Of a DNA stretch of 64,000 nt, positions 25,607 to 42,751 are shown piece by piece. This DNA comes from a bacterium (lineage in GTDB: Bacteria > Patescibacteriota > Saccharimonadia > CAILAD01 > BJGX01): contig JAKOQC010000187.1 of the NCBI GenBank assembly GCA_029778565.1, positions 2,615 to 66,614 of the forward strand, given 5' to 3'. Made by a program: the position numbers and the translations under genes. How positions within the stretch are numbered: position 1 is the stretch's first letter; the number at the start of each line of letters is the position of its first letter. The notes beneath the pieces are model-generated. The model had not been told where the DNA came from. It did not search any database and saw nothing but the letters and a program-made list of their open reading frames with translations.

Positions 25607-26284
25607 ATGCTTAAGACAGAGGGCCTGAAAAAGATTTATCATATGGGCGAGGTTATTGTACCGGCGCTGAATAATGTCTTTTTAGAGGTAGAAGATGGTG
25701 AAATGCTTTGTATTATGGGTAAATCTGGTTCTGGCAAGAGTACTTTGCTCCATATGCTTGGGCTGATTGATTCACCTACTAAGGGAAAGGTACTTTTTAA
25801 AGACCAAGATGTTAGTAAATTGTCTGAGTCTCGACGGTCTAAGATTCGTTTAAGTCAGATGGGCTTTGTGTTTCAGGAATATGCCTTGTTACCAGAGCTA
25901 ACAGCTGTAGAAAATGTGTATTTGCCAGCTAAAATGTTAGGTCGTTGGCCAAGTGAGTATCAAGACAGAGCCGCAACCTTGCTCGAATCGCTAGGTCTGC
26001 TCGATAGAATGCACCATCGCCCTCGTGAGCTTTCGGGCGGACAGCAGCAACGCGTGGCGATTGCTCGAGCAATGGTAAACAAACCCGAAATAATCTTTGC
26101 TGACGAACCAACTGCAAACTTAGATACAGCATCGGGTAAACAAGTAATGGATGCTCTGCGTTGGCTTAATGAGCAATTTGGTACTACAATCGTGTTTGTT
26201 TCTCACGATGCCGAAGATAAACTTTATGCCAAACGTGTTATTTATCTCTATGACGGCAAACTTTCAGAAGAGGAAGAAGATTAG
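25607..26284 (+). CDS. ABC transporter ATP-binding protein (MacB/LolD-type)
   Basis: Walker A GKSGSGKST, signature LSGGQQQRVAIARA, Walker B FADEPTANLD. Confidence 0.9.
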   Translation: MLKTEGLKKIYHMGEVIVPALNNVFLEVEDGEMLCIMGKSGSGKSTLLHMLGLIDSPTKGKVLFKDQDVSKLSESRRSKIRLSQMGFVFQEYALLPELTAVENVYLPAKMLGRWPSEYQDRAATLLESLGLLDRMHHRPRELSGGQQQRVAIARAMVNKPEIIFADEPTANLDTASGKQVMDALRWLNEQFGTTIVFVSHDAEDKLYAKRVIYLYDGKLSEEEED

Positions 26285-26286
26285 CT

Positions 26287-27492
26287 ATGCGAACCTTGCA
26301 AGTTGCATTGTTTATAGCTAGTAGATCTATCTTTCGGGGAAATTTTTGGCTTGGTGTAATGACAATTCTTATGATGGTATTGGTGTATCTAAATCTGCTG
26401 TTTGCACCATCATTATTACAGGGTGTAATTTTTCAGATGAACTCAAAATTACGTGATACGTTAGTGGGAGATATTACTGTAGAGAGCTCAACGCCCGGAG
26501 AGCTCATCTCTAACTCTTCTAAATTAGTTGATCAAATAACAACTATTGAAGGAGTAGATGCGGTAACTCAATCACGCACTCTCTCGGCCCAACTGCAACT
26601 CGCAAGCGAAAGAGGAACAGCAGAAGTATCGGGTATTGATGTTGAAAGCTTTAAAGATGTCTATTCTATTCCTAAATATATGATAGAAGGGAGTTTTTTA
26701 ACGCCCGGTGATAAAGACCAGATAGTACTTGGTGCGCAAATTGCCGGTGCTGGTAAGGCCAAGCTCGAACTGTACTCAGATAGCTTAAAAAATGCTCACG
26801 CAGGGGATGTGGTGACAGTAAAATTTGCCAATGGCGTAACTAAAAACTATACGGTAAAGGGTATTTATCAAACCGAGTTTGTACAGGCAGACTTAAAAAC
26901 ACTTATTACCGCCAGTGAGTTTACCCAGGTAATGCCAAGCAGTGTAGACAAAGCTAGTGCAATAAATGTAAAGCTCAAGCCAGGCGCTAATCAAGATAAA
27001 GTAAACCAACAAATACTCGCACTAAACTCAAATATTAAGACACGAACCTGGCAAGAGAGAGCCGGCTTTGTACAGAGCTATACCGAAAGTATACAGGTAA
27101 TTAATAAAATCTTGCGTGCAGTGGCTTTAGTAGTTGGTTTCTTAACAATCTTTATTATTACCTATGTCGATGTGGTAAACAAAAAGCGTCAAATTGGTAT
27201 AGAGAGGGCTATTGGTATTTCACCCCCAACGATTATTTTGGCTTATGAGCTTAGAGCATTGTTTTATACGTTTGTTGGCGCAGTAATTGGTGCAGTGCTG
27301 TTTATTACCGTAGTAGTTCCATTAGAGGCACGCTATCCATTCCATTTTCCTTTAGGGAATGTGTATTTAGATGTAAATACAGGCTTTATGATACGCAATG
27401 TGTTAATTTTATTACTCGTAAGTGTAGCGAGTGCCACGTTACCAGCCTGGCGAGCGGTATATGGAAAAATAGTTGAAGCCATCTGGGGATAG
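26287..27492 (+). CDS. ABC transporter permease, FtsX/MacB-like (4 TM, large periplasmic domain)
   Basis: 401 aa. One TM helix, a periplasmic domain of about 230 aa, then three TM helices. Follows the ATPase after a 2-nt gap. Confidence 0.8.
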   Translation: MRTLQVALFIASRSIFRGNFWLGVMTILMMVLVYLNLLFAPSLLQGVIFQMNSKLRDTLVGDITVESSTPGELISNSSKLVDQITTIEGVDAVTQSRTLSAQLQLASERGTAEVSGIDVESFKDVYSIPKYMIEGSFLTPGDKDQIVLGAQIAGAGKAKLELYSDSLKNAHAGDVVTVKFANGVTKNYTVKGIYQTEFVQADLKTLITASEFTQVMPSSVDKASAINVKLKPGANQDKVNQQILALNSNIKTRTWQERAGFVQSYTESIQVINKILRAVALVVGFLTIFIITYVDVVNKKRQIGIERAIGISPPTIILAYELRALFYTFVGAVIGAVLFITVVVPLEARYPFHFPLGNVYLDVNTGFMIRNVLILLLVSVASATLPAWRAVYGKIVEAIWG

Positions 27493-27516
27493 GAACCCAC
27501 GTGTTACAATACTTGC

Positions 27517-28119
27517 ATGCAAGAAAGCCAAGCCAATAACAAATCTTCTCAAAATCGATATTTTGTCGAGCTTATTGCTCGCGCACAAGACGGCGATGAA
27601 GATGCTTTTGAGGAGCTCTATAATGAATATTTTACTCGGCTATATCGATATGTTTTGATACGAGTTGGTAGTGACGACGAAGCAGACGATATTACCCAGT
27701 TGGTGTTTCTAAAGTTTTACAAAAATCTTACCAATTGGCGCGACCAGGGCTATGATCCTTCGGCATACCTCTACACCATAGCAAGGAGTGTAATTGCAGA
27801 CTATTTTCGCTCGAAAGCACGTAAGGGCAAGAAAGTAGAAAGTTCTGATGCGGTTTTGGAAATTATTGCTGATCCGTCACAAAATTTACAGGCCGGCGTT
27901 ATATCTAATGAAGAGAAGGCGAATTTATATACAGCCCTTCAGCAACTTCCCGAAAACTATCAAGAAGCATTGCTTTTGCGCTACATGGAAAATCTATCAA
28001 GCAAAGAAATAGCACAAATAATTGGCAAAAGTGATGTAGCTACGCGAAAATTGCTCAGTCGTGCTGTAGCAGCATTAACAGAAATAATGCAATTACAAAG
28101 CAAGGAAAATGAAGTATGA
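27517..28119 (+). CDS. ECF-type sigma-70 factor
   Basis: Region 2 (FEELYNEYFTRLYRYV) and region 4 HTH (LSSKEIAQIIGKSDVATRKLLSRA). Confidence 0.8.
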   Translation: MQESQANNKSSQNRYFVELIARAQDGDEDAFEELYNEYFTRLYRYVLIRVGSDDEADDITQLVFLKFYKNLTNWRDQGYDPSAYLYTIARSVIADYFRSKARKGKKVESSDAVLEIIADPSQNLQAGVISNEEKANLYTALQQLPENYQEALLLRYMENLSSKEIAQIIGKSDVATRKLLSRAVAALTEIMQLQSKENEV

Positions 28120-28592
28120 AGTCAACACAAGAAGATAGGGCCGAACAAAACGCACAACAATTGCGAGAGTTTTCTCGTATCTCGCCCAATAAGCGCTCTC
28201 TATTGCGAGATATTGTTAACTCAGCCCCAAGTAATATTAGTCGAGATAACCGACTAGACAATTATTTTGCCGCCGAAAATGAGCAACCTCAAACGACTGG
28301 TTTAGCCAAACGACCATTGTTTCGAGCGTATGCCGGTATAGCAGTAGCTCTGGTGTTGGTTGTTGGCGGTAGTATAGTTTGGTTTGGTCGACAAAGCAGA
28401 ACTTCAGACACACAAAATCAGTCATCACAAGTTGCGGCAAATGGTAAGGTAGCCAATGCTATTAATGCAATTACTCAGCAGGCACAAACAGAATTACAAA
28501 CGGCTCAAACTGCAACTATAGACACTGCAAATTTGGATGCAGTTAATACACAGCTTGGGCAAATGCAGGAGGCAGTAAATGAAAAATTTTAG
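28116..28592 (+). CDS. putative anti-sigma factor (single-pass membrane protein)
   Basis: Coupled by a 4-nt overlap to the ECF sigma. Cytoplasmic N-terminus, one TM helix, Q/T-rich ectodomain. Confidence 0.4.
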   Translation: MKSTQEDRAEQNAQQLREFSRISPNKRSLLRDIVNSAPSNISRDNRLDNYFAAENEQPQTTGLAKRPLFRAYAGIAVALVLVVGGSIVWFGRQSRTSDTQNQSSQVAANGKVANAINAITQQAQTELQTAQTATIDTANLDAVNTQLGQMQEAVNEKF

Positions 28593-29367
28593 TAAAAAAT
28601 TAGTAACCAGTATAGTGACTATTCTAATTACTTTATCTAGCGGTATGACTGCTGCACTACCCGTAAGGGCTGCTAATTCCGAAACCATTCCCGCTGCGCC
28701 ACTGTTTTGCAGTAGTCTAAATACTATTGGTTCACAGATAGAATTAAAACTAAATAACGTTTCTAAACAGTCGCTACCAAATATATATGATCCCACACGT
28801 TTGTCTAACCGTCATTCTGCTATAAAAAAAGAGCTGGCAGAAAAACGTGCGCAGTGGGATAACCAACGAGATGAGCAGTACAACAAGATGTTATCGTTAG
28901 CACAAAATGATGCACAAAAAGCCGCTATTGAGTCATTTAAAACAAGCGTAGAGACTGCAATACTTGTGAGACGTAATAGTGTAGACAATGCAATTAGTGT
29001 ATATTTTAGTCAGACGTCAGATGAGTTAAGTAGTGAGTCTACACAACCCACTAAAGATCGCCAAGATTTTATAACTGCTGTTAAAAATGCTATAACTACT
29101 GCTCAGTCAGATTGTCAAACTAACAAGCCAGCCAGTGAAATTCGTTCGACATTTCAGACGAATCTTTCAGCTGCTCGTACTCGGCTTCAAACCTCAAGAC
29201 AAAATATAGGTGAGATTAAGACACAACTCGAAAATATTCGTAAGCAAGAGGTGCAGAGTATCAATGAAGCAGTTACTGTGTTTCAAGAAAGTATGACTAA
29301 GGCTCGCCAAACACTTATAGATGAATTAAAAAAATCAGGGGCTAACACGGACCAGTTTGCTATTTAA
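28579..29367 (+). CDS. secreted hypothetical protein (signal peptide, helical, Q/S/T-rich)
   Basis: Signal peptide ...ALPVRA-AN. No recognisable domain. Confidence 0.45.
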   Translation: MKNFSKKLVTSIVTILITLSSGMTAALPVRAANSETIPAAPLFCSSLNTIGSQIELKLNNVSKQSLPNIYDPTRLSNRHSAIKKELAEKRAQWDNQRDEQYNKMLSLAQNDAQKAAIESFKTSVETAILVRRNSVDNAISVYFSQTSDELSSESTQPTKDRQDFITAVKNAITTAQSDCQTNKPASEIRSTFQTNLSAARTRLQTSRQNIGEIKTQLENIRKQEVQSINEAVTVFQESMTKARQTLIDELKKSGANTDQFAI

Positions 29368-29412
29368 ATCTGATAACCGGCATAATTTTGTTTTTTACGC
29401 TACAATAAGGAT

Positions 29413-29976
29413 ATGAAGAACCGTATTGTGATTGGAATAGCTGGTCATCCCTCTGGAGGAAAGGATACTGTTGCACGGTATTTAGTAAAAAAATATGGCT
29501 TTGTACATATTTCTACAAGCGATATTTTGCGCCAATATATAAAAGATCATCAATTAGGTGATCTCAGTCGCGAAAATATGAACAAGGTTGTTACAAAACT
29601 GCGCCAGCAATTTGGGACCGATTTTTTAGTACGCGACATTTTAGATACTAATAAAGATAGTAAGCTGGTTTTGAGCGGATTGCGCAGTAGTGGAGAAGCC
29701 AAGGCTATTATTGCTGTTGGTGGAATTTTGGTAGCGGTGGATGCCAGCTTACAAGTTCGGTATAAACGGGCGCTGCAACGGGGTAGAATTGGTGAGAACA
29801 TTAGCTTTGATGAATTTGTAAAAGAACAAGAAAAAGAAGATAATCCTCATAATCCAAATGCACCAAGTGTTGCATCAGTAACTTCGGTAGCACAAGAACA
29901 TATCGATAATTCTAGTACTCGGGCGCATACGCACGCACAGGTTGATGCATTAATGAAGCGTTTAAACATTTCATAA
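29413..29976 (+). CDS. P-loop kinase of the dephospho-CoA-kinase/adenylate-kinase-like (archaeal UPF0200-type) family
   Basis: IGIAGHPSGGKDTVARYL P-loop and overall pattern resemble archaeal UPF0200 proteins. Assigned from memory. Confidence 0.5.
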   Translation: MKNRIVIGIAGHPSGGKDTVARYLVKKYGFVHISTSDILRQYIKDHQLGDLSRENMNKVVTKLRQQFGTDFLVRDILDTNKDSKLVLSGLRSSGEAKAIIAVGGILVAVDASLQVRYKRALQRGRIGENISFDEFVKEQEKEDNPHNPNAPSVASVTSVAQEHIDNSSTRAHTHAQVDALMKRLNIS

Positions 29977-30028
29977 ACAGGTTCCTCACTTGCTTCTATA
30001 GTGCTAATGGTTATACTAGGTAGTAAGT

Positions 30029-31348
30029 ATGAAACCCCAAAATAATTCAATACTGCGAATTTATGGCATATTTATTGCTGTATCGATAATTTGTTTTGGG
30101 GGAATAATTGCAGGATTTGTATTTCAGAGCCAAGTAATTTTTTGGCTGTCATTATTGTTTTTCGCAACACTGGGGATTGTGCGCATACTTATTATTATTC
30201 ATTCCTTACAATTAGCCAACAAAAACCAAGAGCAGCGTAACAATAACCTCAGTAAAGAACAGGCACAGCTACAAGCTCTTATAAATAGTCTAGGAGAGGC
30301 AATCTTAGCGGTTAATACAAGTGGCGAGGTTACGTTGTTTAACGCTGCAGCACTAGAACTGATTGACTCGCACACAGAGCTTATAGGTAAAAAAATCAAT
30401 TCGGTTTTTCCCCTAATTGATAGTAAAAACCAGCCAGCGGATGTACTCGATTCGGTAATGACAGCAGGCAAAATTAGTGTACGTGATGATTTACGTGTGG
30501 TGCTACCCAAGGCAGATCCAATCGAAGTGTATACCATGGTTACACCAATTAATCAGTCTGGTGAGATAGTTGGGGCAATTATTCTGGCGCGCGATGTTTC
30601 GCAACAAAAGTCATTACAAGCCCAAAAAGACGAATTCTTAAGCGTGGTTAGCCACGAATTACGCACACCAGTAGCGATAGTTGAGGCTGATTTGTCTACA
30701 GTACTTTTACCGGGGTATGCCGATTTACCAGAAAAAGCGAAAAAACTCCTTCATTCTGCAGCTCAGAATATTACGTATCTTTCGGGGCTGTTACAAGATA
30801 TTTCCGATCTTTCTCATGCGGAGCGACATATGTTGGATGTTGAATTACAAACTGTTGACATCCAAAAACTTGCCAAAGAGTTAGCTGATGATTTTTCTAC
30901 TCGCGCTCAAAAAGCCAAGCTCGAATTTAAACTTGATATTGATCCAAATACACCATCAATCGTTAGTTCGACGCAGAGAATTACTGAGATTATTGTTAAC
31001 TTTTTGACCAATGCTATTAAGTATAGTAGCGGAGTTGGAAAAACAGTTACATTACATGTAGGGCCATCTAACCAACTCCCGGGTGGAGTGGTTGTTGAAG
31101 TGAAAGATGAGGGTTTGGGTATTTCAGAGGCTGATCAAGCCAAATTATTTACCAAATTCTTTCGATCTAGCAGTGACGCCGTACAGGCAATAAAAGGTAC
31201 CGGTATGGGGCTATATATTACCACTCAGCAGGCGAAAAAAATTGGTGGAGAAATACACCTAGAAAGTCAGCTAGGAAAAGGAAGTACGTTTTACCTCGTA
31301 TTACCAAGCAAGGTACCGGCTAACCTCATTAGTAGGACGATGAGTTAA
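30029..31348 (+). CDS. sensor histidine kinase (2 TM, PAS, HisKA, HATPase_c)
   Basis: H-box VSHELRTPV. G-boxes KDEGLGIS and GTGMGLYI. Confidence 0.8.
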   Translation: MKPQNNSILRIYGIFIAVSIICFGGIIAGFVFQSQVIFWLSLLFFATLGIVRILIIIHSLQLANKNQEQRNNNLSKEQAQLQALINSLGEAILAVNTSGEVTLFNAAALELIDSHTELIGKKINSVFPLIDSKNQPADVLDSVMTAGKISVRDDLRVVLPKADPIEVYTMVTPINQSGEIVGAIILARDVSQQKSLQAQKDEFLSVVSHELRTPVAIVEADLSTVLLPGYADLPEKAKKLLHSAAQNITYLSGLLQDISDLSHAERHMLDVELQTVDIQKLAKELADDFSTRAQKAKLEFKLDIDPNTPSIVSSTQRITEIIVNFLTNAIKYSSGVGKTVTLHVGPSNQLPGGVVVEVKDEGLGISEADQAKLFTKFFRSSSDAVQAIKGTGMGLYITTQQAKKIGGEIHLESQLGKGSTFYLVLPSKVPANLISRTMS

Positions 31349-33360
31349 AATGCCTCGGTTCTATTTTGCCAACGTGGTTTTAAGAGTTCATACTCTATCA
31401 TAGAACCAAAAAGTAGTAATAACTCTATGGTGCAGCCCAGCGGAAACAGGAGAGTAGAGACAATGCTCTGCCGAGAAGAGATCGTAATAATTAATCGATT
31501 AATATAACTTAATAAAACTGCAGCCGCTAGAATAAATACACCCTCATACATACCAAATATTAAGAGTATAACAAGCAGCAGGGTGGGTAATACAAATGCA
31601 ATAAAGCCGCCCAAAAGCAAACACACCGTAAGTGGCATAGAAAAATGTAGAGCTGGGTAAAATCGGCGAAGATTACCACTGACAATCAAACGACTACTGG
31701 CATGATTCTGACTCGTAGCTACATCAGACCCAAGATAAAAACCGGTATCGAGTTTTTTCATTTTAGCTGCCGCAGCTAGATCAAAATCTTCTAAAGGACT
31801 CTTGCGAACTAGAGAGAATCCTCCCATGGCTTCAATGCTCGAGCGTAAAAAAGCTACCAAGCTCGAGCTAGCATTGGCGACTTTCGGATGGGTACGGGCA
31901 AGTAGGGCAGAAGGATATGCTCCAAGCATAAAGAAATGATTTTGACTAAGGATAAGTTGTTGGCCAAGACTCTTGTTTTGATCTGCCGGCAAGACCGAAA
32001 CCAAACTTTTCTTTTGTTCATTAATAAGTCCTACCAAAATAGAGAGAGCTTTTGGTAGAAGTACAGTATCTGCAGAAATTAAGACTATTACTTCACCACT
32101 AGCCTTTTCTAGTAACGCCTCGGCAGCCCAAGAGTGGATTGTCCAGCCTGGCTTGCGAGGTGGAATATCAATAATTTGCAAACGGGGGTCTTGAAATCCT
32201 TCAAGTATTTTTGCGGTATTATCACTCGAGCCAAGATCGGCCATAATAATTTCAAAGTTAGGATAATCTTGTCCTACTGCTGCAAGCAAAGTAGAAGATA
32301 TATTATCTGCTTGGTTGTAGGTGTAGGCAAGAATAGATACCATGGGGAGTTCGCTGTGCGGTTTGGTTTTTGGCCGGCGGAATTTTACTAAATTATATAT
32401 AGTAAGAACTAATTGGAGTATAAACAAACAGAGCAAAAAGCCACCAAAAAGAGTTATATATTTATCACTCACATTAAAGGGGTCATAGACATATAAGAGT
32501 AGTTGAGATAAAAAGAATCCAACCAAAATATTAAGCCACATAAAATTCTTCCACGCTCTCCGAAATTGCATACTGTGGGCATCAGATCGGAACTTATAAA
32601 AAAAGCTCATATTTAGTGCATAGAGCGAGAGAAAGATAGCGGCAACAAGGCCATAAGGGAAATATGCAATAGCTACAATAAGACAGGTTAGAACGTAGAG
32701 CCAAAAGCTGTAACGGGTTGTTCTTTTAGCACCCATTACCGTGGCAATTGAGGCAATATTGGCAGCTCTATCTGGCTTGATATCTTGAATAGAACCCATC
32801 GCTTGCGATGCCATACCCCATAACATAAAGGCTATAATTGCTGGCCAATACATATTGGTTGTATTACCATACAGCAATCCAAAGATGAGCGGGCTTACAA
32901 AATGCAAAGCAGAGTTAATAGAATCTAAAAACGGAATTTCTTTAAACCTGAATGGTTTGGCAGAGTAGGTAAAACAAAAAAGAACAGTTAAGCCCAACAT
33001 TATTCTGGCGACGTTGCTGCTTGAATACAGCAAGTAACCAAGAAATGGAATATTCGCTGCAGCTATTACCAGCCACAGGGCTTGATGTTTTTTCTTATCA
33101 ACCAGACCTCCTTCGACAGAATTTTTCCGTGGATTTTTAATATCCGATTCGTAGTCATATATATCATTGATACCATAGAGTAGTAAATTGTAAGCAAACA
33201 AAAAATAGAGTGTGCCAAGAATAAATTCAAGATTGATAGTTCTGGCCGCCAGTAAATATCCAACCGCAAATGGTGCAGCAGTATTTATCCAGCTAACCGG
33301 ACGACTGGTAGCAAAAATCTCACGTATGGTAAGCTGAGAGTTATTTTTTTCGCTCTTCAT
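31345..33360 (-). CDS. fusion protein: UbiA-family prenyltransferase (lycopene elongase CrtEb-like) plus family-2 glycosyltransferase (CrtX-like) plus C-terminal TM helices
   Basis: N-terminal 290 aa carries NDIYDYESD (NDxxDxxxD) and DIKPD, with about 8 TM helices. Residues 340-560 show GT2 motifs (VSILAYTYNQ...EIIMADLGSSDNT). It is last in the crtYe-crtYf-crtEb order. Confidence 0.6.
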   Translation of the reverse strand: MKSEKNNSQLTIREIFATSRPVSWINTAAPFAVGYLLAARTINLEFILGTLYFLFAYNLLLYGINDIYDYESDIKNPRKNSVEGGLVDKKKHQALWLVIAAANIPFLGYLLYSSSNVARIMLGLTVLFCFTYSAKPFRFKEIPFLDSINSALHFVSPLIFGLLYGNTTNMYWPAIIAFMLWGMASQAMGSIQDIKPDRAANIASIATVMGAKRTTRYSFWLYVLTCLIVAIAYFPYGLVAAIFLSLYALNMSFFYKFRSDAHSMQFRRAWKNFMWLNILVGFFLSQLLLYVYDPFNVSDKYITLFGGFLLCLFILQLVLTIYNLVKFRRPKTKPHSELPMVSILAYTYNQADNISSTLLAAVGQDYPNFEIIMADLGSSDNTAKILEGFQDPRLQIIDIPPRKPGWTIHSWAAEALLEKASGEVIVLISADTVLLPKALSILVGLINEQKKSLVSVLPADQNKSLGQQLILSQNHFFMLGAYPSALLARTHPKVANASSSLVAFLRSSIEAMGGFSLVRKSPLEDFDLAAAAKMKKLDTGFYLGSDVATSQNHASSRLIVSGNLRRFYPALHFSMPLTVCLLLGGFIAFVLPTLLLVILLIFGMYEGVFILAAAVLLSYINRLIITISSRQSIVSTLLFPLGCTIELLLLFGSMIEYELLKPRWQNRTEAF

Positions 33361-33646
33361 TTTGTATAAATCTTTCCAGTAAGGCCGGGCCTAGTAAAAC
33401 AACGACCAACAAATAGCCAAAGTCTTCGATTGGTATCGAGCCAATTCGAATGCCCAAAACCAAGTTCTTATTATACTCTACAATTGGTAATGCAGTCAGG
33501 TAAGTATCGAAAATCAGCATTGCGATTGTTAGTATCAGCACTAATAACAACAAAACATTTCGCTTGGGTAGTTGAAGTTTTAGCAATAAAAAAAGTGATA
33601 CAGAAAAGAGTAGAAGAATAATAATAAGACTACTATATTTAAACAT
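33341..33646 (-). CDS. lycopene cyclase-domain protein (heterodimeric CrtYf/CrtYd-like subunit)
   Basis: 101 aa, three TM helices, and the PxE(D/E) motif IPIEDFGY. Confidence 0.55.
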   Translation of the reverse strand: MFKYSSLIIILLLFSVSLFLLLKLQLPKRNVLLLLVLILTIAMLIFDTYLTALPIVEYNKNLVLGIRIGSIPIEDFGYLLVVVLLGPALLERFIQNEERKK

Positions 33647-33974
33647 TACTACCTTTCTGCTGTAGGCTTATCAAGCGATAAACTATTAAGGTTACATAAC
33701 TTAATAAGAAAAGGAAAACCAGCTCTTCTATTGGTAGGTTTGGCGAGATAATATGTAACCCAGTTACATAGCGTTGATTGGTGAAAAAAATGTCCAGTTT
33801 TATACCGGCTATGTCGGCCAAAAGGAGAATAGTAATGAGAATAAGAATGGTTTTTATGGCAGCTTTGGCGTGATAAAAGAATACAAGTTTGTATTTGGCA
33901 TCAGCGAAAAATAATCCACATACCCCGACTAACAAAAAGACAAGATAAAACCAATGTCTAGAGACAATATTCAT
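33639..33974 (-). CDS. lycopene cyclase-domain protein (heterodimeric CrtYe/CrtYc-like subunit)
   Basis: 111 aa, three TM helices, and the motif LPIEELVFLFL. Confidence 0.55.
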   Translation of the reverse strand: MNIVSRHWFYLVFLLVGVCGLFFADAKYKLVFFYHAKAAIKTILILITILLLADIAGIKLDIFFTNQRYVTGLHIISPNLPIEELVFLFLLSYVTLIVYRLISLQQKGSNV

Positions 33975-34028
33975 ATTAGTAATTATACGCTACCTAACTT
34001 TGTATAAGAGACGTGTTATGATAATTAA

Positions 34029-35516
34029 ATGAAAAAATCGGTTGCTATTATAGGTGGAGGTATAGGTGGGCTGTGCACTGCTGCACGCCTGCTTAAGAAC
34101 GGCTATGAGGTTACTATTTATGAAAAAGAAGACAAGGTGGGTGGCCGAGCCCATAGAATAGAAAAAGATGGTTACATCTTTGATACTGGACCGACACTGT
34201 TAATGATGACAGATGTACTTTACGATACCTTTGCCTATTGTGGCAAAAATTTTGATGACTATATTACACTGCTACAGCTCGAGCCGAATTACCGCGTAGC
34301 GTTTGGAGATAAAAGTACAATAACTGTCAGTAGTAATTTACCAAAATTTCAGGCAGAACTTGCTAAGTTTGATCCAAAAGCACCAGAACAATTTTTGCGC
34401 TTTTTTTCTGATATAGCCGAAATGTATCGAATTTCACGTGCTGACTTTATCGATAAAAATTTTAATTATATAACCGACTTTCTCAATCTTCGCTCGGGTA
34501 CTCAGCTCTTACGAAAACGTGGTTTATCAAAACTCTACCCATTCGTTTCGCGCTATTTTACCGATGAGCGTTTGCGACAATTATTTAGTTTTCAGAGCAT
34601 GTATCTTGGCGTGAGTCCATATGAGGCACCAGCAATTTATTCAATAGTGAGCTATATGGAAACCGGCCTGGGCATTTGGTACCCGAAAGGCGGTATGTAC
34701 TCGCTTAGTCTAGCATTACAAAAGCTAGTAAAAGATTTGGGAGGCAAGATAGAACTTACATCGCCAGTGAAACAGGTATGTATAGAAAACAAACGAGCGG
34801 TTGGTGTAGAACTAGAGACAGGTAAAATACAAAAAACCGATATTGTAATAGCCAATGCCGATCTGATTTATGCGTATAAAAATCTTATTCCTGCTAGCGC
34901 ACGTAAAAAAATGCCAGATACTCGTCTGGATAACTACAAACAAGCTAGTTCGGCGCTATTGTTCTACTGGGGTGTAGATGATGAATGCAAGGATATGTTG
35001 CATCATAATGTTTATCTGTGCAAAGATTTCAAGGCTAATCTAGAGGAAATTCTAACACAAAAGGTATTACCCAAAAACCCATCTTTTTATACATATATAC
35101 CAACCAAGACCGACCCCAGTCTGGCGCCAAAAGGCAAACAAGTATTTTATGTTTTAGTACCTGTACCTAATTTAGAGAGTAATGTTAATTGGGAAAAAGG
35201 GATCGCTAGAATTCGTAAACAAGTGTTGGCGCGTTTAAAGAGCGAATTTAACCTTGATATTGCAAATAAAATTACCACCGAAACCATCTTTACCCCCGAA
35301 GATTTTGCCCAGAAATTTAATCTCAGTAATGGTTCGGCGTTTGGATTGAGCCACCATTTCTTTCAATCGGGTGCTTTTCGCCCTCTTAACTTTAGTAAAG
35401 AGATAGCCGATATGTACTTTGTGGGTGCCAGTACATACCCCGGAGGCGGCATTCCAATGGTTACACTTAGCGCTAAGCTTGTAACAGAAAGAATTCTAAG
35501 CGATAATGGTCATTAA
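34029..35516 (+). CDS. crtI: phytoene desaturase
   Basis: FAD dinucleotide fold VAIIGGGIGGLCTAARL and CrtI-family length and pattern. Divergent from the crtY operon. Confidence 0.85.
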   Translation: MKKSVAIIGGGIGGLCTAARLLKNGYEVTIYEKEDKVGGRAHRIEKDGYIFDTGPTLLMMTDVLYDTFAYCGKNFDDYITLLQLEPNYRVAFGDKSTITVSSNLPKFQAELAKFDPKAPEQFLRFFSDIAEMYRISRADFIDKNFNYITDFLNLRSGTQLLRKRGLSKLYPFVSRYFTDERLRQLFSFQSMYLGVSPYEAPAIYSIVSYMETGLGIWYPKGGMYSLSLALQKLVKDLGGKIELTSPVKQVCIENKRAVGVELETGKIQKTDIVIANADLIYAYKNLIPASARKKMPDTRLDNYKQASSALLFYWGVDDECKDMLHHNVYLCKDFKANLEEILTQKVLPKNPSFYTYIPTKTDPSLAPKGKQVFYVLVPVPNLESNVNWEKGIARIRKQVLARLKSEFNLDIANKITTETIFTPEDFAQKFNLSNGSAFGLSHHFFQSGAFRPLNFSKEIADMYFVGASTYPGGGIPMVTLSAKLVTERILSDNGH

Positions 35517-35522
35517 TAAATT

Positions 35523-36599
35523 ATGGTAGATAAAAACTTAGTTGAGTTTATTGGCTATGTAAAAGACGAGACAGACAAACGTCTGGAGGAGATTTTTAAT
35601 ACTAAAATAGCTCGTGCTGCCGAGTTAGACAGTGAATATAAAAAATTATTGATCGAAACAAAAAAGCAAGTTTTACGTGGTGGTAAACGCTTACGGCCAG
35701 CCCTGGCTGTACTGGGCTACAAAATTGCCGGTGGCAAAAAAGTAGAGACCATGATTGATGCTGCTGTTGCCCTCGAGATTTTTCATAACTATTTGTTAAT
35801 ACATGACGATTTTATGGATAGAGATGACAGACGTCATGGTGGCCCCAATATTACCGGTGTATATAAGAAAAAACTCCAAAAAGTTGTTCAGCCGAGTAAC
35901 TTACAGCACATTGCTGACAGCCAAGCAATTCTAGCTGGTGATATTTGTTGCGGACTTAGTTATGAGGTTATAACCCAGACAGATTTTGACGCAGAGAGTA
36001 AGTTGCGTGCGGTTGATCGATTAAACCAGGCAGTTTTTGAAGTAGCCGCCGGCCAACAGCTCGATATTTTGGCAAGCTTTATGCAAAAAGTTTCAATGCG
36101 TCATATTCTTAAAATTAACTATTACAAAACAGCTGGCTATTCAGTAATAATGCCATTACAGTTTGGGGCAATTATGGCAGGTAATGGTAGTAAACTCCAT
36201 CCAATTATTGAAGAATATGGAGAGGGAGTAGGGATTGGGTATCAATTAGTTGATGACGTTATTGGAATGTTTGGGAGTGAAAGAGTAATAGGTAAGCCGG
36301 TAATTTCTGATTTGCGTGAAGGCAAACAAACATTGTTGTATTTTTATGGCATGGCACTCAGTGACGATACGCAAAAAGCATTTCTAGAAAAGTCTTTCCG
36401 TAACCCGAATGCGAATATGGCTATGCTAAAACAGGTTCGCGCTATTTTAGAAGATAATGGTGCTAAGGCTAAGACGCTTTTGCTAGCCAAATCTAAAGCC
36501 GATGAGGCCACGAAAATAGCACCCAAACTAACTAGCAATCCAGAGCTACAAAAGCTTCTTATCTCGTTTGCTAATTATTGTGTCGAGCGAAATTATTGA
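35523..36599 (+). CDS. crtE: polyprenyl (geranylgeranyl) diphosphate synthase
   Basis: First DDxxD (IHDDFMDRDD) and second (LVDDVIG) aspartate-rich motifs. Confidence 0.85.
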   Translation: MVDKNLVEFIGYVKDETDKRLEEIFNTKIARAAELDSEYKKLLIETKKQVLRGGKRLRPALAVLGYKIAGGKKVETMIDAAVALEIFHNYLLIHDDFMDRDDRRHGGPNITGVYKKKLQKVVQPSNLQHIADSQAILAGDICCGLSYEVITQTDFDAESKLRAVDRLNQAVFEVAAGQQLDILASFMQKVSMRHILKINYYKTAGYSVIMPLQFGAIMAGNGSKLHPIIEEYGEGVGIGYQLVDDVIGMFGSERVIGKPVISDLREGKQTLLYFYGMALSDDTQKAFLEKSFRNPNANMAMLKQVRAILEDNGAKAKTLLLAKSKADEATKIAPKLTSNPELQKLLISFANYCVERNY

Positions 36600-36600
36600 T

Positions 36601-37440
36601 ATGGACAACCAAAAAGTTTACAACCAGCTAGCCTATCAGACCAGCGGGCGAGTTACGGCTGCGTATTCTACATCGTTTTCTCTGGCTATAACCTTGGTAG
36701 ACAAATCTATGAGAGCGCATATTTATGCAGTATATGGCCTCGTTCGGCTGGCTGATGAAATAGTCGATAGTTTTCGTCCTCACGATGCACGACAATTACT
36801 CGAAAAACTTGAGCATGAATTATATGCTGCCTTAGATAGCGGGTATAGTACTAATCTCCTTATTCATTCATTTGCGAAGACTGCCAAAGCTTATCACTTC
36901 GAGCTTGGTCTCATTCGAGCATTTTTTGCAAGTATGCGTATGGATCTTACCAAAACAGAGTATACCCAAAAAGAATACCAAGACTATATTTATGGATCGG
37001 CCGAGGTAATTGGGCTTATGTGTCTGCATATTTTTACTGATAATGATAGTAAGCTGTATTCCAAGCTTCAACCATCTGCGCGGGCACTAGGTTCAGCATT
37101 TCAAAAAATTAATTTTTTGCGAGACATGGCTGCCGATCATAATCAGCTAGGGCGAATGTATTTTCCTGGAGTTAACTTTAAAACTATGAGCAATACTGAC
37201 AAACGAGCAATAGTTAGCGACATATCGCGAGATATTCAAAAAGCCAGACGTGGCTTGATAGGTTTGCCAAAAACAAGTCGCTATGGAGTATTGTTGGCGC
37301 TCTATTACTATGAAGCCTTAATAAAGAAGCTCGAGAGCAATTCAATAGAAATTATTAAGGCTAAACGCCTTCGCATAGCAAGTCTACACAAGCTTTGGCT
37401 ATATTCTTTAGTTCGGATACAAAAAGTCTTTAATATCTAA
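36601..37440 (+). CDS. crtB: phytoene synthase
   Basis: Squalene/phytoene synthase motifs YAVYGLVRLADEIVD and RDMAADHNQLGRMYFP. ATG at 36601 preferred over the overlapping 36568. Confidence 0.8.
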   Translation: MDNQKVYNQLAYQTSGRVTAAYSTSFSLAITLVDKSMRAHIYAVYGLVRLADEIVDSFRPHDARQLLEKLEHELYAALDSGYSTNLLIHSFAKTAKAYHFELGLIRAFFASMRMDLTKTEYTQKEYQDYIYGSAEVIGLMCLHIFTDNDSKLYSKLQPSARALGSAFQKINFLRDMAADHNQLGRMYFPGVNFKTMSNTDKRAIVSDISRDIQKARRGLIGLPKTSRYGVLLALYYYEALIKKLESNSIEIIKAKRLRIASLHKLWLYSLVRIQKVFNI

Positions 37441-37461
37441 GAAACCGAGTATAATGTAGCT

Positions 37462-38808
37462 ATGAAAACCCCTCATTCTGATGAAGAAATAATTGTGGAC
37501 GGTATTCGTTATAATGTTGCTAACGGTAAGGTAATAGAAGATCAGAATGTGCGTCAACAGGGGCGTGGTCTAGACAGTATACACAAGCAACAGGTTAGTG
37601 TTTCGTCTGCTAGACAAAATGGGCCAGTTAGGCTTACTGATAGAGCTGCAATTATTGATTTGCCACAACGTAGACGCAAAAAAACACAGCGAGCTAAAAA
37701 GGCTATCTCCGTAGATGCGACCGGGCCAAGTTATGCTAATTACTTTGTCAGCGCACTTTTGCCTCGTAGTTTTTCGTCAGCAGCTTGGATATTTAGTGTG
37801 TTACGGGGAATATCTAGTCCGCTCGCCTGGTTACTAATTGCATTACCAATTTTTATCTTACAGACCCAAAATCTTGTTAATGAAAACATCAATCAACTCC
37901 TAGACCGCACTCATCAATTAACCCAAAATGGGGTGGTTTTTCATGCAACCGGGGCCATTATTTTTGCAGTGGTAGTATCGGCCGTTATTCTATTTGTTCG
38001 TGTTGTTTGTAATGCAATCGCACTCCATTTACGTATTACAACGCTTTCTGGTAAGCCAGCACGATTATGGCCAGCCACTAAGTTAGTTTTTCATAATAGT
38101 CTCAAGATGTTATTTCATGGCAGTATACAGATCTTATTGCTCAGCCTGGTTAGTTTACTAGCACTGATAAGTATTTTCTGGGCAGTGTTTATACCACATG
38201 GTCACACACTGACTGTTTTTTCTCCATATATCGTAGGAATGATTGTTTTTGTTTGGATAGCAATACTGTGTTTGCTTCATGCTAAGCACTGGTTACAGTC
38301 TGCAATACTCAGTAGTAGTTTACAGACTAAGTCAATTCAGCAACGAAGTTGGCAAGCGGTAACAGCTTATCCACTACGAGGCGGAATTCTTGCTGCAAGT
38401 AGTGTATTATTATCTTTCGGTATTATTGTTTATGGTGTATGGGCAGCACTCAAAGCTATTAATTGGCTAAGTCGAGCTACTGTACCTTCGAATACTCGAT
38501 TTATTTTATTGATGAGTAGTATATTTATTGGGGTAGTACTGGTGGGGTATATTCAGCAAACTCTCTGGAGCGCCTACGCCAGTTGGCTAAATACGCGCTA
38601 CACTCCAAGCTTATTTGTTTTAGCGACAGAGTCAAACATTAAGAAAACTACCTGGTGGCCTATATGGGTATCAACCTATCTTTTTGTTATGTTACTTTCT
38701 CTCTTTGCGTTGGGTATATTATTTGTTTTACCCACAATTAATGTCTGGGCAGTAACACTTTCTCAGAAAATACCGACCAAGATTGAAATTCCGCGGGTGA
38801 ATAGATAA
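37462..38808 (+). CDS. hypothetical polytopic membrane protein (R/Q-rich cytoplasmic N-terminus, about 10 TM helices)
   Basis: No recognised family. Directly downstream of crtB. Confidence 0.5.
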   Translation: MKTPHSDEEIIVDGIRYNVANGKVIEDQNVRQQGRGLDSIHKQQVSVSSARQNGPVRLTDRAAIIDLPQRRRKKTQRAKKAISVDATGPSYANYFVSALLPRSFSSAAWIFSVLRGISSPLAWLLIALPIFILQTQNLVNENINQLLDRTHQLTQNGVVFHATGAIIFAVVVSAVILFVRVVCNAIALHLRITTLSGKPARLWPATKLVFHNSLKMLFHGSIQILLLSLVSLLALISIFWAVFIPHGHTLTVFSPYIVGMIVFVWIAILCLLHAKHWLQSAILSSSLQTKSIQQRSWQAVTAYPLRGGILAASSVLLSFGIIVYGVWAALKAINWLSRATVPSNTRFILLMSSIFIGVVLVGYIQQTLWSAYASWLNTRYTPSLFVLATESNIKKTTWWPIWVSTYLFVMLLSLFALGILFVLPTINVWAVTLSQKIPTKIEIPRVNR

Positions 38809-38825
38809 CGAATAGAAAAATTGGG

Positions 38826-38855
38826 TTGACAAATAAGGACTATTTAGGCTACAAT
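38826..38855 (+). promoter_or_regulatory. putative promoter TTGACA-N18-TACAAT for secE-nusG-rplK-rplA
   Basis: Hexamers read directly in the 120-nt spacer. Confidence 0.3.
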
Positions 38856-38928
38856 AACAGGGTAGAAAGCCACCGAACACCGGGCTTTTTTAAATTACAC
38901 GCAATTTCTTGATATAATATAAACAAGT

Positions 38929-39117
38929 ATGAAAAAGTTTACCGATTATTTAACTGCGTCTTGGGCAGAACTTCGTAAAGTAGTTTGGCCTAGTCGCAAG
39001 CAAGCTATCCAGCTGACAGGTGCTGTTATTATTGGCGCTTTCTTAATCGGTATATACCTTACAGTATTCGGGTATATTTATCAGTCTATATTGCAAAAAT
39101 TGTTATTTAAATCATAA
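38929..39117 (+). CDS. secE: preprotein translocase SecE
   Basis: 62 aa, single TM helix, upstream of nusG. Confidence 0.8.
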   Translation: MKKFTDYLTASWAELRKVVWPSRKQAIQLTGAVIIGAFLIGIYLTVFGYIYQSILQKLLFKS

Positions 39118-39133
39118 AGAACAAAGGGACCCC

Positions 39134-39673
39134 ATGAAAAGCTCAAACAAGCAAGCAAATTGGTATGTTATTCACACCTACTCAGGCTATGAAGACCAAG
39201 TTGCTGATCAACTAAAACAGCGTATCGAGTCGATGGATATGCAAGATAAGATTTTTAGTATTACCGTACCAAAAGAAAAGCAAATAGAAATTAAAAATGG
39301 TAAGCGTCGTACCGTAGAGCGCAAAATCTTTCCAGGTTACATCTTAGTAGAAATGATTGTTACCGAAGATAGTTGGTTCGTAGTGCGTAACACTCCTAAC
39401 GTAACCGGCTTTGTTGGTACCTCTACAACTCCGTCGCCACTAAGCGATGAAGAAGTAGCAGCTATCCAGAAACGTATGGGTATAGAAGAGCCTAAGTTTA
39501 GTATCGACTTTTCTATTGGAGAATTGGTAAATATTACCGATGGACCATTTAAGGGCTTTGATGGTACCGTTAACGAAATAGATGAGCAAAAAGGTAAGAT
39601 TAAGGTGTTGGTGAGTATGTTTGGCCGTGAAACCCCTGTAGAACTCGACTCACTTCAAGTAAACAAATTGTAA
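39134..39673 (+). CDS. nusG: transcription termination/antitermination factor NusG
   Basis: NGN domain (WYVIHTYSGYEDQV) and KOW (GELVNITDGPFKGFDGTV). Confidence 0.9.
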   Translation: MKSSNKQANWYVIHTYSGYEDQVADQLKQRIESMDMQDKIFSITVPKEKQIEIKNGKRRTVERKIFPGYILVEMIVTEDSWFVVRNTPNVTGFVGTSTTPSPLSDEEVAAIQKRMGIEEPKFSIDFSIGELVNITDGPFKGFDGTVNEIDEQKGKIKVLVSMFGRETPVELDSLQVNKL

Positions 39674-39681
39674 TAATAACA

Positions 39682-39752
39682 CGTGGGACCCGCTTAAAAA
39701 TGCCGGGGCTAGTACCACAAAGGAGATAATTATGGCAGAAGCAAAAAAAGCA
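39682..39752 (+). repeat. leader repeat 1 (about 71 nt; includes SD and first 7 codons of rplK)
   Basis: CGTGGGACCCGCTTAAAAATGCCGGGGCTAGTACCACAAAGGAGATAATTATGGCAGAAGCAAAAAAAGC. Confidence 0.75.
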
Positions 39753-40166
39753 ATCGCAAAAGTAAAGATGGTATTACCAGGTGGAGGTGCAACACCTGCG
39801 CCACCAGTTGGCTCTAACTTGGGTCAACACGGGGTAAACATGATGGATTTTATTAATCCATTTAATGAGCAAACTCAAGATAGAAAAGGTCAACCAACAC
39901 CAGTATTGGTAACAATTTACGAAGATAAGTCGATGACCTTTGTTATTAAAGGTACCCCTGCAAAAGTACTTATTAAAGAAGCCCTAAAGCTGAAAAAAGG
40001 TTCTGGTGTACCGAATAAAGAAAAGGTCGGTAAACTAACCGATGCACAACTTACCCAAATTGCCGAAGCAAAAATGGCCGATCTTAATGCCAACGACATT
40101 GAAGCCGCCAAGAAGATCATTGCTGGCACCGCTCGTGCGATGGGTGTAGAAGTAGAGAAAAAATAA
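39732..40166 (+). CDS. rplK: 50S ribosomal protein L11
   Basis: 144 aa; PGGGATPAPPVGSNLGQHGVN. Confidence 0.9.
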   Translation: MAEAKKAIAKVKMVLPGGGATPAPPVGSNLGQHGVNMMDFINPFNEQTQDRKGQPTPVLVTIYEDKSMTFVIKGTPAKVLIKEALKLKKGSGVPNKEKVGKLTDAQLTQIAEAKMADLNANDIEAAKKIIAGTARAMGVEVEKK

Positions 40167-40175
40167 TCTAACAAG

Positions 40176-40246
40176 CGTGGGACCCTCCTAAAAAGGTTGG
40201 GGTTAGTACCACAAAGGAGATAGTTATGGCAGAAGCAAAAAAAGCT
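40176..40246 (+). repeat. leader repeat 2 (about 71 nt; includes SD and first 7 codons of rplA)
   Basis: CGTGGGACCCTCCTAAAAAGGTTGGGGTTAGTACCACAAAGGAGATAGTTATGGCAGAAGCAAAAAAAGC. About 85% identical to repeat 1. Confidence 0.75.
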
Positions 40247-41167
40247 AAAACCGAAGAAGTAGCTGAAAAAGCTGAAGACAAAAAAGTTATAGCAAAGTCA
40301 AAAGTTAAACCAACCGAGGTATTGGCCAAGGCTGGCAAACGCAGTAAAAAAGTGCAAGAAGCAGAAGCAGAAAAAGCAGCCAAAGAAGCAAAAAAGGCTG
40401 AAGGTAAAGTAAAAACTGCTGCCGAAGCCGAAAAACCAAAGCCAGTACAAAAACCTCACGTGGTACGGTACAGCAAGAATCAAAAAGCTGCTCGTGAGCT
40501 ATTAGAAAAAGATAAACTCTATTCTCTTAACGAAGCTGTAGAGCTATTACCAAAGCTTTCTAAAGTAAAATTTGACGCCACTGCTGAGTTGCACGCAACG
40601 CTTAACATTGACCCTAAACAAGCCGACCAAATGGTACGGGCTGCTGCTGCTCTGCCAGCAGGTACTGGTAAGACTGTACGCGTTGCCGTACTGGCCGGCG
40701 ATAAAGATTCTGCCGACGCTAAAAAAGCTGGTGCCGATATAAGCGATGCCGCTGAGCTACTCAGTGCTATTAGTAAAGGCAAATTCGACTTTGATATTTT
40801 AGTAGCCACACCAGAAAAAATGCCAGAACTTGGTCGCTATGCTAAAACTCTCGGACCAAAAGGCTTAATGCCATCACCAAAAAGCAATACAGTTACCGCC
40901 AAGCCGGCCGAAGTAATTGCCGAAATTAAAAAAGGTCGAGTAGAGCTGAAGAATGATCCGAACGGAATTGTACATGTAAGCTTTGGTAAACTAAGTTTTT
41001 CTAGCAAAGACTTGCTTGCCAATCTTAAATCTGTTTTGGCAGCCTTGCAAAATGCTCGCCCAACCGGTGTAAAAGGTGTCTATATTAAATCTCTCTTCGT
41101 TACTTCATCTATGAGTCCATCAATTAAACTTGATGTTACTGAGGCTATTAAAGAAGCCAAAAGCTAA
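40226..41167 (+). CDS. rplA: 50S ribosomal protein L1 with about 80-aa K/A/E-rich N-terminal extension
   Basis: 313 aa. The L1 core begins near ...ARELLEKDKLYSLNEAVELLPKL. The N-terminus is low-complexity (AEKAEDKKVIAKSKVKPTE...). Confidence 0.85.
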   Translation: MAEAKKAKTEEVAEKAEDKKVIAKSKVKPTEVLAKAGKRSKKVQEAEAEKAAKEAKKAEGKVKTAAEAEKPKPVQKPHVVRYSKNQKAARELLEKDKLYSLNEAVELLPKLSKVKFDATAELHATLNIDPKQADQMVRAAAALPAGTGKTVRVAVLAGDKDSADAKKAGADISDAAELLSAISKGKFDFDILVATPEKMPELGRYAKTLGPKGLMPSPKSNTVTAKPAEVIAEIKKGRVELKNDPNGIVHVSFGKLSFSSKDLLANLKSVLAALQNARPTGVKGVYIKSLFVTSSMSPSIKLDVTEAIKEAKS

Positions 41168-41187
41168 GAGTAAAAATAATACAAAAA

Positions 41188-42740: not shown

Positions 42741-42751
42741 AAATACCCCGA

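Follow-up and report, generated by a model that had tools for sequence, protein, structure and literature searches.

A divergent Saccharibacteria gene cluster with an elongase–glycosyltransferase fusion probably directs synthesis of a cyclic C50 carotenoid glycoside

Bacteria of the candidate phyla radiation (CPR) are usually described as lacking lipid biosynthesis and most secondary biosynthesis. What, then, would a set of carotenoid genes make in such a genome, and does it belong there? This question is raised by a 64,000-nucleotide stretch of contig JAKOQC010000187.1 (hereafter the window; all positions are those of this stretch), in which six adjacent genes at 31345–37440 encode enzymes of carotenoid biosynthesis, among them a UbiA-family protein joined to a family 2 glycosyltransferase (GT2). 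The genome is that of a member of the Saccharibacteria. In our judgement the cluster is probably a native, long-resident pathway of a Saccharibacteria clade and would most likely yield a glycosylated cyclic C50 carotenoid. The individual steps were assigned from family membership and gene adjacency.

The open reading frame (ORF) list of the window confirmed six ORFs in this interval, arranged as two back-to-back operons. The plus-strand operon begins with a gene for a phytoene-desaturase-family enzyme (CrtI family, with CrtN-like affinity) of 495 aa at 34029–35516 (TIGR02734, 502 bits versus a cut-off of 238). It continues with a gene for a short-chain trans-prenyl-diphosphate synthase (IDS) of 358 aa at 35523–36599 (PF00348, E 2e-49), which we presume to be a geranylgeranyl diphosphate (GGPP) synthase of the CrtE/IdsA type, and ends with crtB, encoding a phytoene synthase of 279 aa, at 36601–37440 (PF00494 (SQS_PSY), E 3e-39). 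Divergent from this crtI-IDS-crtB unit, the minus-strand operon runs from small cyclase subunit A (CrtYe/LbtA-like, 111 aa, 33639–33974) through small cyclase subunit B (CrtYf/LbtB-like, 101 aa, 33341–33646) to the UbiA–GT2 fusion (671 aa, 31345–33360; PF01040, E 1e-23; PF00535, E 1e-16). The two cyclase genes overlap by 8 nt, and the cyclase B gene overlaps the fusion gene by 20 nt. The original prediction had read the region as a six-gene set extending from prenyl synthase to elongase, cyclase and glycosyltransferase, and every one of these family assignments held. The crtB ORF is open from a TTG at 36568, and an ATG at 36601 lies two bases past the synthase stop codon; the ATG, which gives the 279-aa protein as called in relatives, is most likely the start codon.

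The identity of the UbiA domain (aa 8–291; 32488–33339, minus strand) is central to the interpretation of the cluster. Over this segment the protein matched NF009608 with 327 bits, above the cut-off of 217, and it scored 144 bits on NF009516, below the cut-off of 205. As both models carry only the unspecific name 'prenyltransferase', they were calibrated here with reference proteins. Dietzia cyclase–elongase fusions, their Arthrobacter equivalent and Rhodoluna CrtEb scored 417–469 bits on NF009608 (Dietzia 417, Arthrobacter 469), and the Dietzia proteins used share length and architecture with LbtBC of Dietzia sp. CQ4 (PMC6669644). NF009516 was the best above-cut-off match of another set of CPR proteins (217–220 bits), which are 33–41% identical to LyeJ of the Halarchaeum crtB-crtI-lyeJ-cruF cluster. 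A quinone-type UbiA enzyme was rejected, with 29 bits versus 264 on the MenA model (NF004751) and 27 bits versus 275 on the UbiA model (TIGR01474), in agreement with the prediction that the domain lies outside the MenA/UbiA quinone clade. A neighbour-joining (NJ) tree of the UbiA domain was built from 106 sequences with 200 bootstraps; its sampling was seeded by the query, and Actinobacteria were under-sampled. Named references for Arthrobacter, Halarchaeum (with lyeJ-cruF) and Staphylococcus xylosus (with crtOPQMN) came from a plasmid collection, and Haloferax and Halomontanus sequences, which are UbiA paralogues outside a carotenoid context, served as tree leaves only. A CrtEb/LbtC-type clade containing the window protein received a bootstrap value of 88, and a LyeJ-type clade received 73. 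From these data we conclude that, by sequence, the window's UbiA domain belongs to the CrtEb/LbtC-type family of putative elongases, outside the quinone and LyeJ types.

The fusion protein was modelled with AlphaFold2 (AF2; pLDDT 89.7, pTM 0.87). In the model, nine UbiA-fold helices are followed by a tenth transmembrane (TM) helix serving as a linker (aa 298–326; 32383–32469, minus strand), a GT-A domain (aa 340–550) and C-terminal helices. The GT2 portion, comprising the GT-A fold domain and the C-terminal membrane helices, spans aa 330–655 (31396–32373, minus strand), with PF00535 matching aa 342–510 and an HpnB-like model matching aa 330–655 at 93.6 bits. Alignment of 67 fusion proteins showed that N65, D66, D69, D73, D193 and D197, which lie in the Asp-rich motifs NDIYDYESD (aa 65–73) and DIKPD (aa 193–197) of the UbiA domain, are at least 90% conserved, and that D431 of the GT2 domain is invariant. 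Given a nine-TM UbiA fold, the linker helix would bring the chain back to the cytoplasmic side before the GT domain, and if the UbiA half has the usual topology, the GT domain would lie on the cytoplasmic face together with the two Asp-rich loops. In this arrangement the newly hydroxylated C5 end could pass from the elongase to the glycosyltransferase.

The nearest PDB folds to the GT half were membrane GT2 enzymes, which is a generic match only. The stand-alone relatives found for the GT2 domain were one protein annotated as 'chlorobactene glucosyltransferase' (29% identity, E 7.5e-29) and HpnB-like proteins only. Next to unfused elongases, no stand-alone GT2 gene was present in loci L007–L011, L059 and L057, and an origin of the fusion by joining of neighbouring genes therefore gets no support. 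An exact sequence look-up did not return the window's own fusion protein, the nearest record being 93% identical, and in the searchable literature we found no description of a fused elongase–glycosyltransferase. Other architectures occur in the same elongase family: P0334, P0335 and P0342 (514–519 aa), P0352 (852 aa) and P0321 (567 aa) carry N-terminal extensions of ~230 aa or more, which may represent both cyclase subunits fused, or further fusions. The joining of consecutive steps is thus recurrent in this family, as cyclase B–elongase in Actinobacteria and as longer N-terminal extensions elsewhere.

Both small proteins encoded upstream of the fusion belong to the lycopene-cyclase-domain family, as had been predicted; in hidden Markov model (HMM) searches with TIGR03462 cyclase B scored 54.5 bits and cyclase A 48.8 bits, each above the cut-off of 39.4. 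In the alignment, cyclase A carries the motif PIEE and cyclase B the motif PIED, both of the P-I/L-E-E/D type. Cyclase B also matched PF18916 (51.8 bits). The identity between cyclase A and Arthrobacter cycA is 34%, and in Arthrobacter, Dietzia and Microbacteriaceae cyclase B is fused to the elongase. The alternative that survives best is built on these two subunits: they would form a CrtYc/Yd-type lycopene β-cyclase that makes an ordinary C40 cyclic carotene, and the UbiA–GT2 protein would act on another lipid or only decorate the C40 product. Heterodimeric lycopene-cyclase-domain proteins do include true C40 β-cyclases, from which sequence alone does not separate the window's subunits, and aquatic Actinobacteria, Rhodoluna among them, carry both crtEb and crtY (PMC12422013). 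However, the cyclase genes of the window are translationally coupled to an elongase of the NF009608 family, the family that is fused to a cyclase subunit in Actinobacteria, and cycA, cycB and the elongase gene stood together in every cyclase-bearing locus examined in which the flank was present. The scanned ORFs of the window also included neither blh nor a rhodopsin gene. We therefore regard a C40 product as unlikely.

An acyclic product of the bacterioruberin type is less probable still. In this scheme LyeJ, CruF and CrtD would act in succession, as was proposed for Patescibacteria of Lake Baikal, in which lyeJ, crtD and cruF were reported, one Saccharibacteria genome included, and read as bacterioruberin genes (PMC9948471). 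Many other CPR loci do carry a LyeJ-type UbiA gene, recognised by the NF009516 scores given above, and in one relative from the fusion clade (L003) a CruF-like gene (PF04240) lies at a distance of 2 kb. Nevertheless, the window's UbiA domain fails NF009516, passes NF009608 and groups outside the LyeJ clade, and tblastn with Halarchaeum CruF and with the CruF-like protein of L003 gave no match in the window. The cluster also contains a single CrtI-family gene, with no second desaturase, and it contains the cyclase subunits.

The length of the carbon backbone depends on the enzymes of the plus-strand operon. The first aspartate-rich motif (FARM) of the prenyl synthase is DDFMD, without an insertion and with Tyr at −5; by the classical chain-length rules, a FARM without an insertion and an aromatic residue at −5 fit a C20 product. 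CrtB contains the motifs DEIVD and DMAAD and was 37% identical to Arthrobacter CrtB versus 27% to S. xylosus CrtM. At the position of a Phe in the S. xylosus CrtM motif it has Ile; we take this Phe to be the equivalent of F26 in S. aureus CrtM, which would restrict that enzyme to C30. Since the FARM fits C20, CrtB has Ile at this position and the two conserved cyclases require ψ-ends, a C40 backbone is favoured by sequence. As a side observation, the fusion-clade loci L004–L006 have a phytoene synthase of another lineage at the same position (e.g. 3878–4726 of L004), with 27% identity to Arthrobacter CrtB versus the 37% of the window protein, indicating that single genes of the cluster have been swapped in place.

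The window CrtI was 38% identical to S. xylosus CrtN versus 29% to Arthrobacter CrtI. In other types of CPR cluster, including an unfused relative at the same locus, CrtI was 36–43% identical to the Arthrobacter enzyme. As CrtI is Arthrobacter-like in every other CPR type, we conclude that the desaturase was replaced in the fusion clade. The similarity to CrtN, the closest of the available references, together with the membership of the GT2 domain in the broad membrane GT2 group of CrtQ (21% identity to Staphylococcus CrtQ, E 3e-6), could be taken to indicate a staphyloxanthin-like C30 pathway in which the synthase, the desaturase and the glycosyltransferase would correspond to CrtM, CrtN and CrtQ, respectively. 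The probability of this alternative is very small. CrtB is closer to its Arthrobacter counterpart than to CrtM and has Ile in place of the CrtM Phe, a prenyl synthase whose FARM motif is like that of type-I GGPP synthases is encoded in the cluster itself, homologues of CrtP and CrtO are absent, and two cyclase subunits are conserved. To our knowledge, diapocarotenoid ends cannot be cyclised.

The pathway to a cyclic C50 glycoside that we consider probable would proceed in six steps. The prenyl-diphosphate synthase would convert C5 units, probably derived from the host, into GGPP; a host source is proposed because no C5 pathway is evident. CrtB would condense two GGPP molecules to phytoene, which the single CrtI-family desaturase would convert to lycopene. 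The UbiA domain of the fusion would then add one C5 unit to each ψ-end, in the manner of CrtEb and LbtC, to form a C50 diol, and a heterodimer of the two ~100-aa cyclase subunits would close the elongated ends to rings. In the last step the GT2 domain, tethered by the extra TM helix, would transfer hexose to the new hydroxyl groups, with both active sites on the cytoplasmic side. The product would be a bipolar pigment spanning the membrane, with a possible role in protection from light or oxidation, or in membrane stiffening.

Several observations weigh against this reconstruction. The C50 length, the ring type and the glycosylation are deduced from the genes alone. Only cyclase B passed the PF18916 cut-off, as cyclase A scored 19 bits versus 27. 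The CrtN-like affinity of the window CrtI leaves lycopene as its product a putative, not a proven, assignment. The best NCBIfam matches of the prenyl synthase were synthases of the GGPP/geranylfarnesyl diphosphate (GFPP) type, all under cut-off, and its chain-length assignment is putative. The GT2 domain was under the curated equivalog cut-offs (HpnB, 94 bits versus 379; CruG, 52 versus 600), and inside the CrtEb-type clade of the NJ tree the branching among Saccharibacteria, Chloroflexi and Actinobacteria had bootstrap values <50. The remaining points concern precursor supply. Each carotenoid molecule needs ten C5 units, and none of the 38 window ORFs scanned with Pfam is a gene of the methylerythritol phosphate (MEP) or mevalonate (MVA) pathway or idi. 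Freshwater CPR bacteria other than Gracilibacteria were reported to lack C5 synthesis and to have only C10–C20 prenyl chain extension (PMC9166423). If the absence of C5 genes is general in the clade, supply of the precursor by the host is implied. The prediction of a complete cluster is thus borne out from C5 units onward, and not for the synthesis of the C5 units themselves among the window ORFs scanned.

We compared the cluster and its surroundings with other assemblies. The cluster and its flank, 13 of 13 genes, are colinear with the metagenome-assembled genome (MAG) 'Candidatus Saccharibacteria bacterium STL-PAT10' (L001), with identities of 99% for NusG, 97% for SecE and 93% for the fusion, which in that MAG lies on the 797-kb contig JAXLZU010000001.1; the original assignment of the genome to the CPR and Saccharibacteria is thereby confirmed. 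The same arrangement was present in independent assemblies, namely the MAGs JAXLZU01, JAHFOQ01 and CAZMYX01 and three Logan runs. In GCA_964570715.1, 19 kb are colinear with 24420–43222 of the window at 77–81% nucleotide identity. The rest of the window contains housekeeping genes, including ribosomal protein operons and the genes for DnaB, DnaX, CysRS, ThyA, DHFR and SHMT. The tetranucleotide correlation of the cluster with the rest of the window was 0.953, and 16 of 58 control windows of equal size deviated more. With a GC content of 0.39 and a third-codon-position GC content (GC3) of 0.33–0.35, the cluster equals its flanking genes, as the predicted amelioration requires. An assembly chimera or a recent import is excluded by this match in composition and by the independent colinear assemblies. 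In favour of a foreign origin, whether through a chimera in assembly or binning or through very recent transfer from an actinobacterial host, stand the actinobacterial affinity of the elongase, cyclases and CrtB and the epibiotic life of Saccharibacteria on Actinobacteria (PMC9296517). This view can nevertheless be dismissed as highly improbable, as the cluster lies amid Saccharibacteria housekeeping genes on one contig, recurs in independent assemblies, is indistinguishable from its flanks in GC, GC3 and tetranucleotide use, and reaches a best actinobacterial identity of only 39–47%, with no homologue above ~70% seen.

How widespread is the cluster? Full-length fusion proteins formed ~100 clusters at 90% identity, with identities to the window protein from 93% down to 41%, and the named ones are nearly all from Saccharibacteria. 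Clustering at 50% gave ~19 full-length representatives, down to 28% identity, some of them from Chloroflexi. Cluster layouts were surveyed among contigs at one genome per species, and four were found. Layout A is that of the window and always lies beside secE-nusG, with fusion proteins 50–93% identical. Layout B is the colinear order IDS-crtB-crtI-cycA-cycB-UbiA, which is the actinobacterial order, at another genomic site; colinear crtE-crtB-crtI-cyclase-cyclase-elongase genes are present in the Saccharimonadales loci L007 and L011. In layout C, crtI is divergent from cycA-cycB-UbiA. Layout D consists of a LyeJ-type UbiA gene divergent from crtI-crtB-IDS, without cyclases, and occurs in Saccharibacteria, Paceibacteria, Peribacteria and Absconditabacterales. 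Two UbiA genes from these groups do not read through with translation table 11, one in a Peribacteria MAG (L026 7992–8846; seven in-frame stops) and one in a Paceibacteria MAG (L022 8007–8867; one), and the stops are either recoded codons or marks of pseudogenes.

The cluster occupies the secE-nusG locus in genomes whose NusG is only 74–83% identical to that of the window. The closest unfused elongase (51% identity; L059) comes from a genome with 74% NusG identity, shares both locus and divergent layout with the window cluster, and keeps an extra C-terminal TM helix. As an unfused relative is found at the same locus in so distant a genome, we conclude that the cluster is old and vertically inherited in the window's lineage. 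The distribution also overturns the original view that a pigment pathway is exceptional for CPR bacteria, with ~100 fusion clusters at 90% identity, the same locus down to ~50% identity and LyeJ types in other CPR classes. In the searchable literature we found no description of the cyclase-containing CPR cluster type, and C50 genes in Patescibacteria only in PMC9948471; a study of rhodopsin-bearing Saccharibacteria describes them as lacking blh, the last enzyme of retinal formation, and makes no mention of carotenoid genes that they encode themselves (PMC9296517). The cluster is thus common in the databases and unusual in the literature only.

The components of the cluster differ in their affinities. 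The elongase is 39–47% identical to proteins of Dietzia, Arthrobacter, Rhodoluna and Microbacteriaceae. By sequence affinity the cluster is a mosaic: actinobacterial for the elongase, the cyclases and CrtB, closer to CrtN for CrtI, and CruC/HpnB-like for the GT2 domain. The components of actinobacterial affinity would have a common origin with the C50 cluster of Actinobacteria, the desaturase and GT2 domain would have come from elsewhere, and the assembled cluster would afterwards have passed down vertically at the secE-nusG locus. That genes were exchanged with Actinobacteria in ancient times is plausible. Polarising the transfer with the NJ tree was given up; with bootstrap values <50 and query-biased sampling, no conclusion on direction is drawn. 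The suggestion that the pathway was acquired from the host lineage is therefore retained for the actinobacterial affinity of the elongase, cyclases and CrtB, and not for the donor or direction, and acquisition of the cluster en bloc from Actinobacteria is contradicted by the CrtN-closer CrtI and the CruC/HpnB-like GT2 domain.

Saccharibacteria are unable to make their own membrane lipids, and apparently C5 isoprenoid units as well. A more far-reaching proposal, which taken as a whole we hold to be doubtful, combines several claims: host isopentenyl and dimethylallyl diphosphate (IPP/DMAPP) would be turned into a bipolar C50 diglycoside by a bifunctional elongase–glycosyltransferase that caps each hydroxyl at once; the product would be mainly a structural membrane 'rivet' of the ultra-small cell, not only a sunscreen; and the cyclic C50 pathway would be as old in Saccharibacteria as in Actinobacteria, with transfer possibly from the symbiont to the host lineage.

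Some observations may bear on expression of the cluster. The divergent intergenic region is 54 bp long (33975–34028), and TATAAT-like boxes were read in it by eye, a TATAAT or TATGAT box lying 6–7 nt upstream of both start codons. This arrangement suggests back-to-back promoters, from which leaderless mRNAs could be transcribed. The TATAAT-type boxes are kept in L001 and L002 only, and in a promoter/terminator scan promoter-like sites were no commoner than in shuffled sequence. Convergent with the fusion gene is a gene for a PAS-HisKA-HATPase histidine kinase, assigned by family match (30029–31348, plus strand), the end of which overlaps the end of the fusion gene by 4 nt. It adjoins the cluster in L001, L002, L005, L006 and L064–66, that is, in most relatives of layout A; no response regulator was found among the neighbouring genes scanned. 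Three genes at 27517–29367, 2–4 kb from the cluster, encode an extracytoplasmic function (ECF) sigma factor, an anti-sigma-like protein that crosses the membrane once and a secreted protein of coiled-coil type, and this trio stays beside the cluster in L001–L003 and L064–66. In L003 (10016–12727) it directly abuts the fusion gene and is followed by the CruF-type carotenoid gene (PF04240). In Myxococcus and Streptomyces, carotenogenesis induced by light is under the control of ECF sigma factors. Between crtB and secE lies a gene for a 448-aa polytopic membrane protein without a family (37462–38808, plus strand). It is kept at this position in loci of layout A and in L059 and probably belongs to the genomic backbone, not to the pathway.

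Other features of the window were recorded in passing. Synteny with the nearest relative (L064) ends at ~24420. With a GC content down to 0.37–0.38 and deviant tetranucleotide use, the region 14700–24420 probably represents an island, either integrated or variable. It contains a serine recombinase gene (16703–18415, minus strand) overlapping a tRNA-Trp gene (16692–16768), a tRNA-Ile gene with the rare anticodon TAT (20381–20456) and genes for three tandem zinc-ribbon membrane proteins (20622–22479). The segment 40000–48000, with thyA and the DHFR and SHMT genes, has the highest GC content (0.44–0.46) and the lowest tetranucleotide correlation (0.85), deviating more than the carotenoid cluster. 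The window DHFR is 327 aa long, and in relatives this protein has a weak HIT-domain match. A ribosomal protein L10 leader (RF00557, 47.6 bits) lies at 47664–47795, upstream of rplJ as expected.

Four features set the cluster apart from others of its known kind: the phylum in which it occurs, the divergence of its two operons, the affinity of its desaturase to CrtN and the joining of elongase and glycosyltransferase. The chemistry is predictable. The fusion enzyme, the wide distribution in CPR bacteria and the question of precursors have so far been undescribed. An intact and conserved pigment pathway points to metabolite exchange between host and episymbiont, in the form of IPP/DMAPP or a longer prenyl diphosphate. 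By their genes, Patescibacteria have at least two different C50 systems, LyeJ without cyclases and CrtEb with cyclases, which corrects a picture of 'bacterioruberin genes' only. Carotenoid colour and a resonance-Raman signal could provide an optical marker of uncultured Saccharibacteria, and the compact fusion might be usable in engineering of C50 carotenoids.

The final C50 products of Corynebacterium glutamicum are glycosylated. Compared by gene content, this organism has the same enzyme inventory as the window, consisting of GGPP synthase, CrtB, CrtI, a two-subunit C50 cyclase and a UbiA elongase. For the product of the window genes, the rings may be of the ε, γ or β type. The decaprenoxanthin operon of C. 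glutamicum is crtE-cg0722-crtB-crtI-crtYe-crtYf-crtEb (PMC5401885). The original claim that the gene order is the same applies to the cyclase-cyclase-elongase half (crtYe-crtYf-crtEb) only, as the other half is permuted in the window, I-E-B and not E-B-I, and inverted. Neither the MarR-type regulator CrtR nor an MmpL-like gene, both features of C. glutamicum, was found among the neighbouring genes scanned.

The C.p.450 cluster of Dietzia sp. CQ4 is crtE-crtB-crtI-lbtA-lbtBC with the glycosyltransferase gene crtX (PMC6669644). Dietzia CQ4 and Arthrobacter sp. StoSoilB13 (L057) resemble the window in the NF009608 family of their elongase and in CrtB (37% identity to the Arthrobacter protein), and in both, the two small cyclase subunits immediately precede the elongase and follow the order seen in the window. 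The cyclase A-cyclase B-elongase order of the window, with overlapping stop and start codons, matches lbtA-lbtBC of Dietzia. Dietzia has crtX in its cluster, as the window has GT2, and both fuse consecutive steps. The fusions differ, as the window elongase is joined C-terminally to GT2, whereas the Dietzia and Arthrobacter elongase is joined N-terminally to cyclase B. Unlike these clusters, that of the window has two divergent operons, the order I-E-B, a CrtN-closer desaturase and a GC content of ~39%, and it belongs to a CPR episymbiont without an evident C5 supply.

The haloarchaeal LyeJ-CruF-CrtD system (Halarchaeum, L062) and the LyeJ clusters of CPR bacteria (L014–L034) likewise combine a UbiA elongase with crtI, crtB and a prenyl synthase. 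In contrast to the window, they use another elongase subfamily (NF009516), lack cyclases, require CruF and lead to an acyclic product. The GT2 half of the fusion resembles CruC, CruG, CrtQ and HpnB in having a GT-A fold with an N-terminal TM helix and C-terminal TM helices, and it aligns over the full length of the HpnB model. Its scores stay below the curated cut-offs and, unlike these enzymes, it forms one polypeptide with the elongase, which would generate the hydroxyl presumed to be its acceptor.

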